DNA of 62,926 nt, filler included, from Rhabdomonas costata (taxonomy: Eukaryota): the NCBI GenBank assembly GCA_019059605.1. It is 21 parts of 21 records of this genome, joined end to end, with 100 filler letters (N's around TTAATTAATTAA, not from the genome) between each part and the next. Parts side by side here need not be neighbours in the genome. Positions count along the whole stretch, not along the records: positions 9,011 to 11,917 come from JAHMHO010001765.1; 20 more parts are not named here. One strand, written 5' to 3'. This document shows positions 2,904 to 37,009 of this stretch, piece after piece (positions within the stretch are counted from its first letter, which is position 1; each line of letters starts with the position of its first letter). The position numbers were made by a program, and so were the translations under genes. The notes beneath the pieces were generated by a model. The model saw only the letters and a program-made list of their open reading frames with translations, was not told the origin of the DNA and did no database searches.

Positions 2904-3003
2904 NNNNNNNNNNNNNNNNNNNNNNNNNNNNNNNNNNNNNNNNNNNNTTAATTAATTAANNNNNNNNNNNNNNNNNNNNNNNNNNNNNNNNNNNNNNNNN
3001 NNN
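2904..3003. other. Artificial contig linker (N44-TTAATTAATTAA-N44), first of 20
   Basis: The identical 100-nt linker, with stops in all six frames, recurs at 5908, 8911, 11918, 14922, 17919, 20923, 23925, 26927, 29928, 32930, 35931, 38932, 41933, 44933, 47933, 50932, 53931, 56930 and 59930. It defines 21 contigs of ~2.9 kb. Confidence 0.99.
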
Positions 3004-3111
3004 GGGTTTTTGTTTTGCACAGAAGAAGTGTGCAAGTGCTGAAGAAGTGGAGAAAACTACCATTCCCCGGACTGAACAAAATTCGGTGCACACAAAGCAA
3101 GCATGGCAGAC

Positions 3112-4906
3112 CTGAAAGAGGTGGGTCAGCCCGTGGCCCACCAGCCCAGCGACGTAGTGGCAGTACAGCTCGTAATCCGCGATGGTCACGGCGGGCTCGG
3201 TCCGCGCGGCGTACTCTGCCATCCCCGCGCCCATCTTCTTCGCGATGTCCACGATGGGCTCCTGGAGCTTCGGATCGAGCTCCAAGAACGCCGTCACCAC
3301 GAGGTCGAAGTGCTCCAGCAAGTCCCGTTCGTCCGCATTGTCCTGGAATGCAGGCAGACGCAGGGTGGCAAGCTTCCTTAACGTGGGGTTTATCGGCTGC
3401 CGACTTAATTGTTTGGAGCCATGTTGACCAAGTGTTCTGGATGCGAGAGTCCAAGGCCAAAAGTTGCATCTGTTAAAGGAAGGAAGGAATGAAAGAAGGA
3501 AGTTAACGGGGTGCGCAAAACGGACGCAAAGCTCACGAGATGCGCAAGTCAAAGCGAACAGCGGGAATGCCCCTTTAAAACAGAACCTTCCCTGAAGCAC
3601 AAAATGAGCTCTCACTGTAATCTCTCCTATCCCTCTGCAGAAAAACGCGTTTGCGCAACGATATGTTCCGCGTTCGGTAAAAACCTGTCAAAAAGCAATT
3701 TTGCCTTCGCTGTCAAACGAAAGGCCTATTGAGAAGAAAAGCTTGCGCATACCCCGATTCCGGAAATCGACCAACCTCGCTGATAAAGCTTCTCGTGAAA
3801 GCTCTGTGAAACACACATTAATTAACAGGACCAATACCAACACGAAATGAATATTCTACCGACACAGATACACTCTGAATCATCCAGATCAAAATGCGGG
3901 ACTCGCTTGAAAGTATAAAACACAAAGGGCCAGACAGGGCTGCAAGACCGCGGACCGATACGGCATGCTCTATCTGCGCTAATAAACTTCATAAACCTCT
4001 AAAGGTGTATTTCCACTGCCCCTCGAACAGCCAATCACCTCTAAACCACAAAATTCCGTTCAAGCGAGGTGAAAATCGTAAGCGCGCGACTTGCGAAGAT
4101 GGCGTACGAGTGGGAGGCAGCGAAGAGATATCACTAAATTTGCTGATCGCTGCACGCAAAAAGGAAGTCGAATGAAAAGGTGGCGCGGGAGAGGAGATAC
4201 GATCAGCTCGGAGGTCTTGCGGTCCAACGACACGGACATGTCATCCTCAATCGTGTCCAGTCCACGGAGGACGAGGTAGAAGATGCACGTCGCGTCGCGC
4301 AGCTCCTCACCCAGCGCCATGATGACGGCCGCAAAGGAGCGGCTGACCTGCAACGAAAAAACAGACAGGTGTGTGCTGAGGCACTCCTTTTCCGGGAGGT
4401 TGGACTGTGACTTCACCCCTCATCAGGGGCGTGCTGACTCCGCACGGTTTTCAAGCCGAACCCCTGATGGAGCCCCCGACAGATAGTTGTTTTTGGGGGC
4501 GAGGGGGGGGGGCAGGGGTGAGCTCACGCCTTGGGTGGATGCCTTTATGCAAACAAATGGAAGCACACTACTTTCTGCGAAACACCCACCATCACTCCAG
4601 ACATAAAAAAAAAGCCGTTTCGAATTCATCAGGTTCTGTGGGGATGCGCAAGCCGAGGACCAATTACGGTGGAAAGGGAGTGGGGTAATATGTGCAAGTG
4701 CAACGCATACAAGTGCATCGTTTTTCCGGGAGGGGGAGAGTTGGGTCGACCTTCTGCAGTTTCTCGTAGCAATAGTCCAGGTGAGGGTTTTTGGCCTTTA
4801 CCGCCTTCTTCACCGCGCGCTGGCGCACCAACACCTGCATGATCGCCGAGGTGTCTGTGTACCACTGCCGCGCCACAGACACGGGGCTCCACAGGGCAGA
4901 CATCAT
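3112..4906 (-). CDS. SQS: Squalene synthase (farnesyl-diphosphate farnesyltransferase), 5' part
   Basis: Exons 4906-4751, 4347-4201, 3803-3753 and 3342-3112, all phase 0 GT-AG. They give [19 protein letters not shown]...[14 protein letters not shown]...|[26 protein letters not shown]...[14 protein letters not shown], the canonical SQS motifs. Truncated at the contig end. Confidence 0.95.
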
Positions 4907-9010: not shown

Positions 9011-11578
9011 GTTTTTGGTGATACTGATTCGCAATGGTGCAAGCCAGAGTTCCTTTTGGACTGGTCCAGCAATGGACTTGTCGACCTAAGAGGAACGTCA
9101 GTAAAACTCAGAAAATCCATTCTTCAGCACATGGGCTGCCTCTGTGATATCTTTGATAGGTTGAGTTCCCCTGCTTTGATTCCTCGGTTCATTCAATGCG
9201 CTCTTCAAGCTTCTCCACCATCAGAGGCCAACCTGCAATGGGTGTCGGCTCTTCTCGACTTCAATGCCCCATATGCCATCGTCGTGCACCCGAGATATCC
9301 TCCGACACGACCGGCACATTGGTGGGCACAGAAAACCTTGTGCTTCCAGCCTTTCGACGACGAGGAGCCTTTGCTGCGGAATGCGATTTTGCAACTTCGA
9401 GAGCACCCCCCTGAATCAAAACCCGTTTTCCTCGATTTTTCAAGCAACCATTTGAAGTTCTATCCATTGGGGTTTCGCACCATGGGCAACATTATGAGAT
9501 CGACCTGGCTCTTTTTGGCCAACCCAGACTCGTGTGATATCAACATCGCAGTGTCTGAAGGTGAACTCGTTTCAGAGTACGCAGCTTCGTATGCCACACA
9601 TCTCGCGAGTGTCAACGAAAGGCACGAGCTTATGATTTCTACCCTCAAACCATGGGCGAAAGGAGCCGACCAGTCACCTGAGTCCTGGAACGAAGAGCAA
9701 GAAGCCAGAGGGATTCTCACGGCGCGGCTCCGCCCACTGACAGAATGCCAGCCGTCTCTGGACTGCATGCCTTTGGTAAAGCCCATGTACATTACAGGCC
9801 CTCCAGGGTCAGGAAAGACCCACCTTTTGCTTGAACTTGCTCGGACTCTCCATCTCTCGGCTCCTCATCTCAATTGGGAGATTTCAAGCCTTGCGGCATT
9901 GAGGGCGTCAAAACTTGGTGGGGTCCACTTTCACCTGCTCTTCGGATTCAGGCCTGACAAAAATCGCCGCCCCACAGCAGCTTCTATGGCAAGCTCCGCC
10001 ATGCGCCATCTGGCACATCATCCCGTTTTGCGCCGGTATCTTCTCGAACTTCACGTACTTTTTTTCGATGAATGGGCACAGTTGGGTTCCATCTCCGTCG
10101 CAGCCATGGACTTGCTGCTGAGGAAAATCCGCGGCAACGATAAGCTTTTCGGAGGCCTTTGTGTCATAGCAGCAGGAGATCATTACCAAAATGAGCCCAT
10201 TGACGAGCCATCACCACTCCAGTCCTGGCTTATGATCTATAACTTTAACACAATCTGCCTCACCACCATGTACCGTTCGCGCCTGGATGCCATGCTTCAG
10301 TTCATCATTATGCAAATTCGGAAGCCTCAGATCCCGGAGATTGTCGTTTCGCAAATCCTTTCCATCGTTACCACTCATTGCCAGATGGTGGGAGGACCTG
10401 CTGCAGTTCCCTCGGATTCCACTTGGCTGCTTCCGACTCACGCCGCAGTGGTCGGTGCCAGAGAGGCACGTTTTTCTGCGTCCACTGAAGCCAAGAAGCT
10501 GTTTCAGGCGGAGGACTTTATCCTGCACGCGGGGACATGGAAACGAACCCTTGACACGCGCTACACTGCCCTCCTCAACCGTCAAACTGCGCTTCTCCCC
10601 GTGGTGCACGTAGTCGTGGGCGACAGAATGCAATTCACACAAAACACAATCATCAACAAAAAACTCCATGCGAACGGGTCCTCGGCAGTTGTACACGACG
10701 TCACTGAGAACTCCGTCACACTGAAGCTTCACGATGACTCCCAAGCTTCCGTCAGCAGGGCTGCAGCCAAGGTATTGCTGCTTTTAAAATCGGCTTTTCT
10801 AGTTTCGTTTACATATCCCTTCTCTGCTCTTTTCTCCCACTCTCTACCCTAGGTTTCAATGAGTCGCCGAGGCATGCTTCAGCTCAAGCGGGAACAGATT
10901 CCCTTGGAGCTGGCCTGCGCCACAACCGTGCACGACAGCCAAGGAGACACCTGCCCTTCAATAGCGACTTCCGCCAATGACAACTGGGAGAACAGGATGT
11001 GGTCCCGACAAATGTTATTTACGCTCCTTACGAGAGTCGAACGGCTGAACCACATCACTTTCGTTGGGTTTAATTCCGACAACATTGCCGCGCTGCTAAG
11101 GCTGACTACTTACTGGCATGGGGATGCTGACGCCTGGTGTCAAAAGGTAAACCTGTTGAAAAACGCCTACACCCAGGTGATTCCCTTGCCGGTTCCTGAA
11201 CCATTCTACGACCACGGTTTGCAAGCCCTTCCTCGTGCTGGAATAAACGCGGCCTATATTTTGGAAAGTGAGTCAACCAAGGCCTGCTATCCAGGGAGCA
11301 CGGACAACGTACTCCGCCGCCTTACTGAACACAACAGCAAACGAGGAGCCGTGATCACTGCGTGGGTTCAGGACTGGAAAGTCAAAGCCTGTGTTCTTGG
11401 ATTTCCCTCGGGGTTGTTAGGAAGGGCAAATGCTCGTGCATTTGAGCTCAAGCTCCTACGCTCTCCCGTTGTGCCGCACCTGCCGCTATTTGAGTGGATC
11501 CGTCTGACGCATTTGCTCGTGACACAACACAACGCGGACACCTCACTTTCTCCTTTATGGGTGCAGACCTTTCTCTGA
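9011..11578 (+). CDS. Pif1-family (SF1B) DNA helicase fused to a C-terminal SLX1-like GIY-YIG endonuclease; 5'-truncated; candidate mobile-element protein
   Basis: Open from the contig start. One 81-nt GT-AG intron (10772-10852, carrying the in-frame TAG) joins the 598-aa and 239-aa ORFs. Helicase motifs: GPPGSGKT, LGGVHFHLLF, FFDEW, FGGLCVIAAGDHYQ, LTTMYRS, REQIPLELACATTVHDSQGDT, LFTLLTRV. Nuclease motifs at ~11250-11460: AAYILES..CYPGSTDNVLRRLTEHNSKRGAVIT..W..GF..ARAFE. Confidence 0.9.
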
Positions 11579-12228
11579 CTTTTGTTTTTGTGCTGTTGAC
11601 TTGTGCTGTAGAGCGCTGTCTCCGTCATTCTGGCGAAATGCTCACGAAAACGGGTGGTTCTTAATCTTTTCCATTATGACCATATAGGTTGGCCCAGCAT
11701 GTTTTCGGGGGACCTTGTTGCACACCCACATTTCCAACCAGGGAGCAATGAAATTCGTTCTGCGCTTTCGCCGCGTGCCGGAAGACCACACAGCCATTTC
11801 CTTTGCTTCGGTGTTGCTTGGAAGACCCGGACGAGTTTTCCGAACTTAAACTGAACTTCCAGTAGTTTAGGATAGCACCATTCAAGCGCTCATTTGTGTT
11901 TGCTTTCCCCCACCCCCNNNNNNNNNNNNNNNNNNNNNNNNNNNNNNNNNNNNNNNNNNNNTTAATTAATTAANNNNNNNNNNNNNNNNNNNNNNNNNNN
12001 NNNNNNNNNNNNNNNNNTTGTGATTCACAGCCGCACTGATTATTCACGTCGTTTGATGCTTAATAAGTGAGGCCGATCAAATGAAAACCGCGCCAAGCAT
12101 ACTGTGGAAAAACAAAAGCATCAAACGACGTGAATAATCAGTGCGGCTGTGAATCACATCCAAAACCCAAAGGACAGGTAATACCGAGGGCACGTGTGTG
12201 TCGAGGAAAAGCGAGAGATCGGCCATAC

Positions 12229-33030: not shown

Positions 33031-33823
33031 GTTGTTGTTACAAACGCCGATGTGAAGTACTCCGCTGACGCATCCTGGGCCAGCAATCTCGTCTCCAGCC
33101 TTGCGCCCTACAAGCAGATCGTCAGCTATGTCTGTATCGGCAATGAGGTGAACAAGGCCCCTGAAGCGTATCCCTACGTGGCAGCAAGCATTAATGCCAT
33201 CGGAAGTGCTCTCTCCTCCGGCGGTTTTGCAGCCAAGCCGATCACCACTTTCACCACTGAAGTTGTGTCGGGTTTCCCGCCATCGGCTGGAAAGCTGGTC
33301 CCGGACAACACCTTCCTGGGCATCCTCGCGGCACTCTCCGCGCAGGGCTCCCCTATCTTTGTGAATATCTACCCTTACTTCACGTTTATGGACTCCCTGA
33401 GCTGGCCTCATCCCATCGATCTGTCGTACGCGCTGGGCACCGCGAAATATCCAGTAGTTAGTGACAGGGGCCATGACTACACGGCCCTCTTTGACGCCCA
33501 GTTTGACACGGTTGTGTACGCGCTACGTGATGGGGGGTACAACAACATGCAGCTGGTGGTTGGGGAATGCGGGTGGCCCACTGCAGGGGACACGCAGGGC
33601 TACGCCAGCGTAGCCAACGCACAGGTCTTTGTCAATCTGATGGCCGAGAAGGTTACCAAGGGCACCCCCCTTGCCCCTGGGAAGTACACTCTGTATCTGT
33701 TCGAGGCTTTCGACGAGCCGAAGAAGGGTCCTGCGCCAGTGGAGCCTCACTTCGGAGTTTGGGATCACGCTGGGTCCCCAAAGTACCCGATGAACTGGCA
33801 CTCCACACATCTGAGCTCTTCTG
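33031..33823 (+). CDS. GH17 endo-1,3-beta-glucanase catalytic exon, 5'-truncated
   Basis: YVCIGNEV (acid/base Glu), FPPSAG, GSPIFVNIYPYF, YTALFDAQFD, VVGECGWPTAG (nucleophile Glu), GTPL, YLFEAFDE and EPHFGV..PKY, i.e. plant-type GH17. A probable splice donor lies at 33824. Confidence 0.95.
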
Positions 33824-33962
33824 GTTGCTTTGCCAATTTTATTCTCCTTGTGCATCTCTTAATTGGAGGTATTATTCCCTTTTGTATTGATTCGGAACAC
33901 TCTGGAAAGTGGAGTGGAGCTGGGCTTATTTCTGAATGTAATTGCCACCGGCAACACTCCTA

Positions 33963-34020
33963 TACTATTCTATCCAGTCCTATTCTATCCTATCCTGTCC
34001 TACCCTATCCTATCCTGTCC
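33963..34020 (+). repeat. Degenerate (ATCCT)n pentanucleotide microsatellite
   Basis: ctattctatccagtcctattctatcctatcctgtcctaccctatcctatcctgtcc, inside the probable intron after the GH17 exon. Confidence 0.8.
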
Positions 34021-37009
34021 TTGCTGCAACCGCTGGTGTCTACCTTTCTAATTTGTTCTTCGCAGCCCCGGAACTTGCGGTGGAGCTATTCTCAGAGCCT
34101 CGCTCACCTGCGGAGTCAGGGCTGGGGATGGGACACCGCCTTCTTCTTCGGGGAATTCCTGTGACAATGCCCAGTGTGGCTTTGAAGGTAGTGTGTAAAA
34201 TTCAGCATTTACGGGCGGGCGTTTACAACCGCTTATTTTCCAGGTTTCAGGTTTCAAGTTTCATCGCCAGATGGACGGGGGGTGGGGGTAAAGTCAGCCT
34301 CTTTTTTTTTTCGCATCTTTTTGTTCGTGCTGAATTTAGATGATTAAAATTTATTCTGAGTTTCTTACACTTTCTTCTTTCGCACCTTTTCAGGTGAGGC
34401 TTTCCTTGGTGATGTGCCCAACGGTGTGCTTGTTTCCCCTGCCTCTGCTTTGCGATGACGTTGTTATCCTCATTCACTGCGATGAGTATTCCATTCGCTC
34501 ATCCCCCTGTACTGTGTGGCCATGTTTGGCCCATGCTTGATCCCAGGTGATCCATTCAGGTGTTTTTGGCAGAATGCAGGGATTGTGTCTCGGAGTGTGC
34601 GGTGGCTCACAGCTTACCGCGGAGAATCTGCGCTCCATAGTCGCCCCGCACCGCGACCTCAGCCTGGTCTCCTTCAGCATGCTGGAGTGCCCGGTGCTGG
34701 AGCTGCGCTGTAGGGGTATGCAAAGGCTGCGTGTAAAAGGATGCAGAATTCTTGAGGTGACCTTGGGCGGGTGCTCATCCTCTGCCACGCAAGTTCACAA
34801 TCACAACCGAAAGGCCGTTACAGTTAATGTCAATGAGAATAAGTTAAGAAATTACGAAGTCCTCGGGGAGTGAGTTACAACTGAGAAAGTTTTTAGTTGT
34901 GCGCGGTGATTTCTTGTCGGGTTGAGGGAAAGGGGGTGGGGGGTTATTACACATCCCGGCAGAACGTTTCTGGCCGGTGTTCCATTGTAACCATCAACTT
35001 AACCCGCTACCATATTTTCAGTGATAAGTATACTCAACACTAACCAACACATTTTTGGGAAGCTCGTGGTTTGCTGATGTTGGTAGCTTCAAGGCAATTG
35101 AAGGAAACTGATTATTTTGACGTGCATCTTTCATCTGAGGTATGGCTACTTGATGTTGTGTTGAAATTCATTTTTTGTGATGAAACGCGCCTAATCTCCT
35201 ACAGGCTCGACTCCAGCCGCCGCGAAGGATGTCTGCAGTGCGCTTGGTGCGGACCTCCTCCTCCCGACCTCCAACCTGTACAAGCTGCTGCTCCGTTCCT
35301 TCGCGTCAGACTCCCTCCTCACTGTCGCAGCTCCCTGAGCGGCGCAATATGTAACGCAGAGTGGAAGAGGCATCTTACGCCTCTCAGACACCCATTGCGT
35401 CCTTTCCTCTGACCCCCCCTCTCCTTCTCTCTCGCTCTCTCTCTCTCCAGGGCAGCACACCCTGTGCTTGAAATCTCCACCACAGCAGCACACCTTTGCT
35501 CTGCTCTGCTGCACAGCTGCACTCAACTGCTGCTGATACATAAGACATCGATCACGTTTTCAGTGGAAATGACCTGTCGTTTCCCGTTTCCATCCATCAT
35601 CCACTTCTTGTTCTGTTTGTTTCAATTTCTCTGCTCTCTTACGACAATGCACCGCAGTCTTGGGGATTTGTGGCTTGTGTCAGCATTATCAACCCAGTAA
35701 TGTGAACTCCATCGCAATTGGCTGAACTGGGTGCAGTTGTCCAATGTGAAGGCAAATCTTTGAACTTCTGTTTTTGATTTCATTCGCTCCGGGATGCAAA
35801 AGGAAGTGATTTGGCACCTCCAAGGACTGTTTTCACCTAGACTTCCCCGTGTTACAGCTCGAGGCTCTTAGCGGTGTCCCCGCTAACGACCGGCCCCCGA
35901 AGAAGCTTGGAACGGCGAAAATGTACCCAANNNNNNNNNNNNNNNNNNNNNNNNNNNNNNNNNNNNNNNNNNNNTTAATTAATTAANNNNNNNNNNNNNN
36001 NNNNNNNNNNNNNNNNNNNNNNNNNNNNNNGGAGGGGGGGGGGGGGGCTGCCAGCTTCGGCCGGGCAACACCGTGGTGACGTACACCGAGATGGTGTACG
36101 GATGCCGTGCCGAGATGGAGTTCCCTGTCACGGTGCGGTGAGGTCTGCTGAGGGTGTGGCTGGGACGGAAGGTGTCTGCAGCCTGTGCGATGTTTCGCCC
36201 CACCACGGGGGCGGTTTTCCAACAGTGGTGGCTCCCTCGGATCGTTTTCTTTTCTGCAGATATTGTGAAGGCCTCAACCCCTGTGCGCAGGGCGCACACC
36301 GAAGTGTAAATTGTGTAACGTTACAATAGAAAAATGAATCATCGGGTTGGGGAAAGGGAGACAGGGAATGGGGGAGCGATTCGGGTGAGTTTGCCGGTCA
36401 CGGAAAGCCGTATTTCCGGAGAACAGCTGGAAAACCAGTGATTCATAATAACAAACCGTAAGCAAACTCCTTCACCATCGCATGTGAACATGTGAACACC
36501 CCCCTCCCCGTCGCTCCACAGTTTTCTTCTACAATTCTTTTCCGATGCTAGAGCGGAATTGGAAAACAGCATTTTGCTGAGGGAAGTAGGCGATGCACGT
36601 GCCCCCATGTGATTTCCAGGATGTTTTGGGGGCCGCTCTGCTGCGTTCGGCGGCCCAAAAAACCCCAGATGCTTTCTCGGGACAGGGGAGGGGGGATCCG
36701 CAAAAAAGTATAATGTCAATTGAGTACTTGGGCAGACGCCGCACTGCGGTCGGGTGGTTGCCCACCGTTTTTCTAGAGCCATTCATCTCTGGGCGCCAGC
36801 GGGGCTTGTGGGGGGTATTTTCCGGGTTTTCTGGGAATGCACAGGGGTGTTGCGGCTTTCCTTCGCCTTGTGGCAGCGCCCGTGTTTGCTGTACTATCCC
36901 CAGCCTGTTCACTGCGTGAGTTTTTCAGTCCCTCGCTGTATTGCTTTGTGTGTATGTGAAGTGCGTCTACGTCCGTCTGATAAACGCACAAAATTTCTCT
37001 GTGAAAGAG

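Follow-up and report, generated by a model that had tools for sequence, protein, structure and literature searches.

A helicase–GIY-YIG gene fragment of Rhabdomonas costata as the probable 3' end of a large gene of Helitron-like transposons with a C-terminal SLX1-like nuclease

Helitron-like elements (HLEs) are classed as Helitron, Helitron2, Helentron and proto-Helentron. Canonical Helitrons (HLE1) have the ends 5'-TC ... CTRR-3', and to our knowledge the apurinic/apyrimidinic (AP) endonuclease of Helentrons is the sole extra nuclease recognised in Helitron-like elements. According to Thomas et al. (2014, PMC4067079), this AP endonuclease is joined C-terminally to the Rep-helicase (RepHel) protein, often together with OTU proteases, and motif 2 of the Rep domain, RG-S-P-H-x-H, carries S in Helentrons and L in Helitrons. 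Helitron2 (HLE2) is defined by its terminal structures, namely terminal inverted repeats that are short and asymmetric, a hairpin at either end and insertion between T and T (Bao and Jurka, 2013, PMC3627910; HELIANO, PMC11417382). HELIANO (PMC11417382) also reports a RepHel protein with a GIY-YIG domain in HelenSM92, an HLE2 family of Sphagnum magellanicum. Here we describe a gene of Rhabdomonas costata (assembly GCA_019059605.1) that joins a Pif1-type helicase to an SLX1-like GIY-YIG nuclease domain. It was found in a stretch of 62,926 bases, called the window below, which consists of 21 contigs of 2,897-2,907 bases joined by N44-TTAATTAATTAA-N44 spacers, so that the genes on the other contigs are unlinked to it. 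Judged from its homologues, the contig probably represents (at a probability of roughly 85%) the 3' third of a large single gene of a Helitron-like transposon, belonging to a clade with a C-terminal SLX1-like GIY-YIG domain.

The gene lies on the contig at 9011-11917 (2,907 bases), where the frame is already open at contig base 1. Its features, all on the plus strand, are listed here by window position; P0002 is a full-length relative, and the short motifs were found by motif reading.

9011-10771, plus strand: exon 1, 587 codons, 5'-open at the first contig base, from the open reading frame (ORF) listing
9011-9760, plus strand: pre-helicase region, about 250 amino acids (aa), matching P0002 1824-2085
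9782-11050, plus strand: Pif1-type superfamily 1B (SF1B) helicase core, split by the intron; from Pfam, PDB, fold and motifs
9797-9820, plus strand: Walker A, GPPGSGKT
10061-10075, plus strand: Walker B, FFDEW
10175-10189, plus strand: helicase motif GDHYQ
10772-10852, plus strand: predicted intron, 81 nt, GT-AG; from sequence and junction homology
10853-11578, plus strand: exon 2, 241 codons (to 11575) followed by TGA at 11576-11578; it contains, in order, the helicase end, a linker and the GIY-YIG domain
10931-10945, plus strand: helicase motif HDSQG
11015-11035, plus strand: helicase motif LFTLLTR
11249-11452, plus strand: SLX1/URI-type GIY-YIG nuclease domain; from Pfam (above cut-off), the PDB match to SLX1 and conserved residues
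11249-11269, plus strand: AAYILES, with the first GIY-YIG Tyr
11285-11302, plus strand: CYPGST, with the second GIY-YIG Tyr
11315-11335, plus strand: RRLTEHN, with the Arg and the His-Asn
within 11435-11452, plus strand: RAFE, with the Glu
11579-11917, plus strand: 3' flank, 339 nt, to the contig end

A preliminary description of this locus had proposed that removal of the 81-nt intron joins the two domains in an ORF still open at the contig start, and both points are borne out, the first by Pfam and by a gap-free alignment to the protein P0001, the second by exon 1 beginning at contig base 1. The putative intron has a long pyrimidine tract, its final codon is an in-frame TAG (10850-10852), up to which the frame of exon 1 runs open and at which an unspliced transcript would stop, ahead of helicase motif V and the nuclease, and its GC content is 0.41 as against 0.52-0.53 in the flanking exons; the coding frame is intact over the 828 codons of both exons. 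P0001 (770 aa, an uninterrupted ORF with Pfam PIF1 and GIY-YIG) was the sole close homologue from a word-index search. Exon 1 aligned with its residues 71-527 and exon 2 with its residues 528-732 (39% identity), and no gap was found at the splice, where exon-1 residue 586 corresponds to P0001 527 and exon-2 residue 1 to P0001 528. As the 527|528 step of P0001 meets the exon junction, the predicted splice gives exact collinearity with P0001. The C-terminal residues of exon 2 line up with the C-termini of P0001 and P0002. The GC content at third codon positions (GC3) of the gene, 0.57-0.60, is close to that of ORFs on neighbouring contigs (0.61-0.63), as would be expected of an element resident in this genome.

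Pfam recognised PIF1 on exon-1 residues 258-398 (E 1.1e-6; 28.9 bits, cut-off 25.9) and, under its cut-off, UvrD_C_2 on exon-2 residues 21-61 (22.6 bits, cut-off 27.4), so that the intron seems to lie inside the helicase core. GIY-YIG was recognised on exon-2 residues 135-186 (E 1.1e-6; 29.2 bits, cut-off 22.6). The HDSQG and LFTLLTR motifs, as well as both GIY-YIG tyrosines, the Arg of RRLTEHN and the Glu of RAFE, had already been read from the sequence in the preliminary description, and all of them were located at the positions given above. By these features the protein is predicted to be an SF1B Pif1-like helicase with intact ATPase motifs, and its C-terminal domain a GIY-YIG nuclease of the SLX1/URI type with the Tyr, Tyr, Arg and Glu present. 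No Pif1_2B, the typical Pif1 accessory domain, and no AP-endonuclease family was detected by Pfam in the protein, nor was a reverse transcriptase (RT) at E<=1, the helicase sitting where the RT of a Penelope element would be; the pre-helicase region (9011-9760) matched no Pfam family.

Among proteins of solved structure, exon 1 was closest in PDB sequence searches to Pif1 (E 6.6e-8) and the last part of exon 2 to SLX1 (E 0.0025, with the window sequence alone), and the window sequence alone matched the Helraiser transposase with E 0.17. An AlphaFold2 model of exon 1 only had a mean predicted local distance difference test (pLDDT) score of 78.7; residues 1-180 were modelled poorly (mostly 45-68), and a fold search with this low-confidence part gave no match. 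The best fold matches of the model were Pif1 helicases (Foldseek 1.8e-17), with Z 22.4 and a root-mean-square deviation (rmsd) of 3.1 over 304 residues for Pif1 (VIA). Its residues 199-576 also matched residues 1014-1386 of the Helraiser chain (Z 18.9, rmsd 3.8 over 332 residues). The model thus confirms a predicted SF1B/Pif1 fold for exon 1, by a comparison that is unable to separate cellular Pif1 from Helitron helicases.

The affiliation of the gene comes from its full-length relatives. A HMMER profile made from P0001 and both window exons was run against 1.84 billion representative proteins and yielded 10,628 proteins at E<=1e-3, 155 of them at E<=1e-30. The nearest relatives of full length are giants, 2,300-3,600 aa long, that consist of an N-terminal region, an HUH/Y2 Rep domain, a linker, the helicase and, at the C-terminus, GIY-YIG; the top full-length matches were P0002 (2,663 aa, matched over 1899-2663) and P0003 (2,543 aa). 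Pfam on 16 matches (E<=1e-4) found PIF1 in all 16, GIY-YIG in ten and Helitron_like_N in five. The presence of GIY-YIG and Rep was also scored with local hidden Markov models (HMMs) built from the relatives' own regions; by this measure GIY-YIG is present in 119 of the 150 matches listed and the Rep region in 79. In the listed matches of at least 1,500 aa (n=61), Rep and GIY-YIG occur together in 56, Rep only in four and neither in one, so that a Rep region is present in 60/61, and in most listed relatives GIY-YIG ends 12-65 residues from the C-terminus. The Rep region covers residues 1217-1712 of P0002 (E 5e-45) and 1066-1570 of P0003 (E 7e-55), and both proteins have all three rolling-circle motifs (YF.T.T, H.H and YL.KY). 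The Helitron-like, rolling-circle reading offered in the preliminary description finds its support in P0002, P0003 and the 56/61 long relatives with Rep and GIY-YIG.

Exon 1 is collinear over its residues 13-582 with P0002 1824-2418 (32% identity, E 3e-96), which marks the window ORF as the probable 3' third of a Helitron-like RepHel gene. The contig end cuts the ORF just over 100 residues downstream of the position at which the Rep region of P0002 ends. The more than 240 aa before Walker A had been called unassigned; while it holds that no Pfam family matches them, they do have a counterpart, since exon 1 aligns here to P0002 1824-2085, and are thus homologous to the Rep-helicase linker.

Conservation was assessed in an alignment of 14 members of full length, which share 18-34% identity with P0002. 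Invariant in all 14 are the two HUH histidines and the first catalytic Tyr of Rep, the Walker A glycines and Lys, the Walker B Glu, and the Tyr, Tyr, Gly and His-Asn of GIY-YIG; the second Rep Tyr and the GIY-YIG Arg and Glu are kept in at least 90% of the members. The window protein retains 43/45 near-invariant family columns from Walker A to its end; upstream, mafft --add misplaced the first 250 window residues, so that five seemingly missing conserved columns there are uninformative. Pfam on the 14 members gave PIF1 and GIY-YIG in every one, Helitron_like_N in ten (weak matches, best E 7e-8) and OTU in three. Compared with the PDB, the family profile matched Pif1 (8e-30), the Helraiser transposase 7lcc (9e-27), SLX1 (1.5e-14) and UPF0213 proteins (1.8e-6).

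Two further observations concern the part of the giants upstream of Rep. In their N-terminal third, certain Cys, His and Trp positions are invariant or nearly so (in P0002, for example, C13, C16, C201, C294, C508 and H541), which may form zinc-binding modules; Pfam gave no family for this third except a weak DUF5763. In the subclade of P0038 (3,197 aa) a ubiquitin C-terminal hydrolase (UCH, E 1e-20) precedes Rep and is a second, unrelated protease of deubiquitinase type where other members and Helentrons have OTU.

To place the window protein among its relatives, a FastTree phylogeny of 153 helicase cores (448 columns, long branches flagged) was used; its rows comprise relatives from the searches, and neither named cellular Pif1 proteins nor curated HLE references are among them. 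The window falls in a clade of nine rows (Shimodaira-Hasegawa-like support 97) with P0001 and P0151, P0002, P0003 together with the two members of its cluster, P0005, and P0006. GIY-YIG is present in each of the nine, and Rep in P0002 and P0003. Over the whole tree, 131/153 rows are GIY-YIG-positive, every deep branch being among them. The 18 ingroup rows that lack GIY-YIG are seven short fragments and 11 Rep-bearing proteins scattered over the tree, a pattern that looks like loss or truncation. Classical Helitrons (P0184-P0187), taken as outgroup, are set off by a long branch with support 100.

The same fusion had been suggested to be sought in other organisms, and giants were found in tunicate and hagfish alike. 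When the P0022 helicase was used in a word-index search, 34 giants were returned at E<=4e-41, 21 of them with a precomputed GIY-YIG domain; the giants include 'uncharacterized proteins' of RefSeq/UniRef, four from the tunicate Styela clava and one from the hagfish Myxine glutinosa. The E-values then leave a gap from 1e-41 to 1e-7, below which five classical Helitron proteins follow (1e-7 to 1e-4). An AP-endonuclease family (Exo_endo_phos) is present in none of the 39 matches to the P0022 helicase by their precomputed domains, and Pfam found none in the 16 + 14 relatives mentioned above. The Rep region of P0022 gave six matches in a word-index search, too few to place the clade among the Helitron-like groups. 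The Atlas cluster nearest P0001 has 66 members (GIY-YIG 98%, PIF1 85%), mostly eukaryotic, and diatoms are its commonest known phylum, which we take as a lead only. Some relatives sit on contigs of 0.2-4 Mb. The P0043 cluster (P0193-P0197) holds six proteins of 2,455-2,468 aa that are at least 90% identical and are spread over five contigs (0.12-1.4 Mb), one of which carries two of the proteins; its members are apparently intact multi-copy elements. A metagenome scan with P0013 for flanked relatives gave one irrelevant 1.3-kb locus only (L001).

Compared with Helentrons as Thomas et al. (PMC4067079) portray them, the clade shares a giant single ORF, N-terminal zinc-finger-like Cys, an HUH/Y2 Rep, a Pif1-like helicase and an additional nuclease at the helicase C-terminus, along with an OTU protease in some members, here 3/14. 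By sequence comparison, GIY-YIG occupies the position that the AP endonuclease holds in Helentrons; the nuclease itself, however, is of the SLX1/URI type and not an AP endonuclease (PMC4067079). The Rep domain differs as well: in 11 relatives the residue before P/x-H-x-H of motif 2 is K/R in five, F in three, L in two, M in one and S in none, and the family consensus read from the relatives' Rep is G-N-[KR]-P-H-x-H, unlike the G-S-P-H-x-H given for Helentrons by these authors (PMC4067079). An Arg precedes [YFVL]-E-[FY]-Q in 8/11 aligned relatives. With GIY-YIG instead of an AP endonuclease, and with a motif 2 that never has S and has L in 2/11, the clade departs on sequence grounds from the published criteria for canonical Helentrons and, it appears, from those for canonical Helitrons.

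Other known systems share parts of this design. As in Helraiser (HLE1, 7lcc), an HUH Rep, seen here in the relatives, is followed by a Pif1-like helicase, but Helraiser has no C-terminal nuclease whereas the window clade ends in GIY-YIG. The order of the active site, GIY...YxG...RRxxxHN...E, is that of SLX1/UPF0213; unlike in SLX1, no RING or zinc-finger domain follows, and the nuclease is fused to a helicase. Penelope-like elements are likewise eukaryotic mobile elements with a C-terminal GIY-YIG nuclease, which presumably nicks DNA during their integration. There its partner is an RT, while here the partners are Rep and a helicase, and a DNA-based rolling-circle route is expected.

The preliminary description had called the element novel and unclassified, which went too far, as GIY-YIG in a Helitron-like family, HelenSM92, is already in print (PMC11417382). 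That paper describes the HelenSM92 domain as 'captured and transposed' by one family and not as integral to a clade. In the full-text literature apart from Repbase reports, subscription papers and supplements, and as far as its accessible text goes, HELIANO alone ties GIY-YIG to a Helitron-like element, and GIY-YIG otherwise belongs to Penelope-like elements or unrelated genes. The fusion has thus been glimpsed in print before, the conserved and widely distributed clade has not, and the clade is a widespread form, all but undescribed, of a kind of transposon already known. Whether it further amounts to an ancient, eukaryote-wide lineage separate from Helitrons and Helentrons, in which GIY-YIG is integral and selected and not a captured passenger, we consider evenly balanced.

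For Helraiser a mechanism has been worked out in which Rep nicks, DNA is unwound 5'->3' and a circle is formed. In the element of R. costata the missing 5' part, about 1,800 codons as judged from P0002, would encode the Rep domain. Rep would nick the left end and hold one strand covalently by a Tyr-5' phosphate bond, the helicase would unwind in the 5'->3' direction, the second Rep Tyr would resolve the right end, and the circular intermediate would integrate. GIY-YIG may cut once more, nicking either the target or the complementary strand, as suggested by the analogy with the SLX1 and Penelope endonucleases and by the position shared with the Helentron endonuclease.

Several points weigh against such an origin of the contig. 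No Rep domain is seen in the window ORF, because only about 250 codons separate Walker A from the contig end upstream of it. In the 3' flank (11579-11917), a repeat search gave chance-level short repeats only, with no terminus or terminal repeat, and no stable hairpin was found (DNA fold z-score -0.11). One copy of the gene is present in the 62,926-base window and no second was found, the closest relative of the protein is 36% identical, the helicase tree includes no cellular Pif1, and the second nick by GIY-YIG is proposed by analogy. Finally, the gene calls on two 3.7-kb contigs, P0001 (770 aa) and P0151 (803 aa), are short proteins with helicase and GIY-YIG and may represent Rep-less forms.

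These short proteins bear on the alternative that survives best, although we hold it to be improbable: a domesticated or Rep-less host gene made up of linker, helicase and GIY-YIG, immobile and acting in DNA repair or genome defence. It would agree with proteins called at 770-803 aa, with an intact ORF of 828 codons in which the catalytic residues are all kept, and with an intron and a GC3 like those of the host. An intact ORF is, however, equally expected of a young transposon copy, and P0001 and P0151, on contigs of merely 3.7 kb, may themselves be truncated. Moreover, the window ORF is open at contig base 1 and homologous to the interior of P0002 already from residue 13, so that the gene continues upstream. 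We regard the contig as a fragment of a transposon and not as a host replication or repair gene.

The preliminary description had also considered an endogenised giant-virus gene. Both SF1B helicases and GIY-YIG nucleases, the latter as stand-alone proteins, are encoded by large DNA viruses; yet we find an endogenised gene from a giant virus, or from another large DNA virus, very unlikely, as three IMG/VR scans (one each for P0001, P0002 and exon 1 of the window), which detect close relatives only, gave no relative, PHROGs matches were to generic helicases only, and the relatives bear a Helitron-type Rep, in some cases sit on contigs of 0.2-4 Mb and include tunicate and hagfish RefSeq proteins. 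Just as poorly does a vertically inherited cellular Pif1-SLX1 fusion for replication or repair fare: cellular Pif1 and SLX1 are the best PDB sequence and fold matches, but they are, with Helraiser, the sole solved representatives, Helraiser matches too (Z 18.9), the 150 closest of the 1.84 billion representatives are mostly Rep-bearing giants, and Pif1_2B was not found by Pfam.

The remaining contigs of the window contain three ORFs of host type and an inverted repeat, as follows; Rfam gave no match across the entire 62,926-base stretch.

2956-3687, minus strand: squalene/phytoene synthase fragment, E 2e-11, other contig
12019-12061 and 12116-12158: inverted repeat, two perfect 43-nt arms around a spacer of 54 nt, right where the next contig begins
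15934-17918, plus strand: YTH domain protein, 661 aa uninterrupted, E 5e-58, other contig
33031-34164, plus strand: glycosyl hydrolase family 17 (GH17), 377 aa uninterrupted, E 4e-39, other contig

The 43-nt inverted repeat may have arisen by fold-back during assembly, as an artefact, or may mark one end of a small element with inverted repeats. For the GH17 ORF, the closest Atlas clusters come from Streptophyta (score 0.91), again a lead only. The preliminary description gave most host genes here exons of 50-250 nt; the YTH and GH17 ORFs, both with strong domain matches, are long and uninterrupted.

For Helitron-like transposons these results mean that a second, unrelated nuclease fold takes the place of the Helentron endonuclease in no fewer than 119 clusters of proteins (50% identity), with an active site kept across members that are 18-34% identical and in hosts as distant as tunicate and hagfish. 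Annotation pipelines and gene sets include 'uncharacterized proteins' and 'GIY-YIG superfamily endonucleases' of 2,300-3,600 aa that are unrecognised as transposases. Set beside Helentrons, the GIY-YIG clade offers a natural comparison for the role of an extra nuclease in rolling-circle transposition. If GIY-YIG is indeed integral to the clade, rolling-circle transposons would have recruited an unrelated second nickase to the same C-terminal position at least twice, and such twofold recruitment would speak for the cutting of a second strand as a genuine step in the mechanism by which they transpose.

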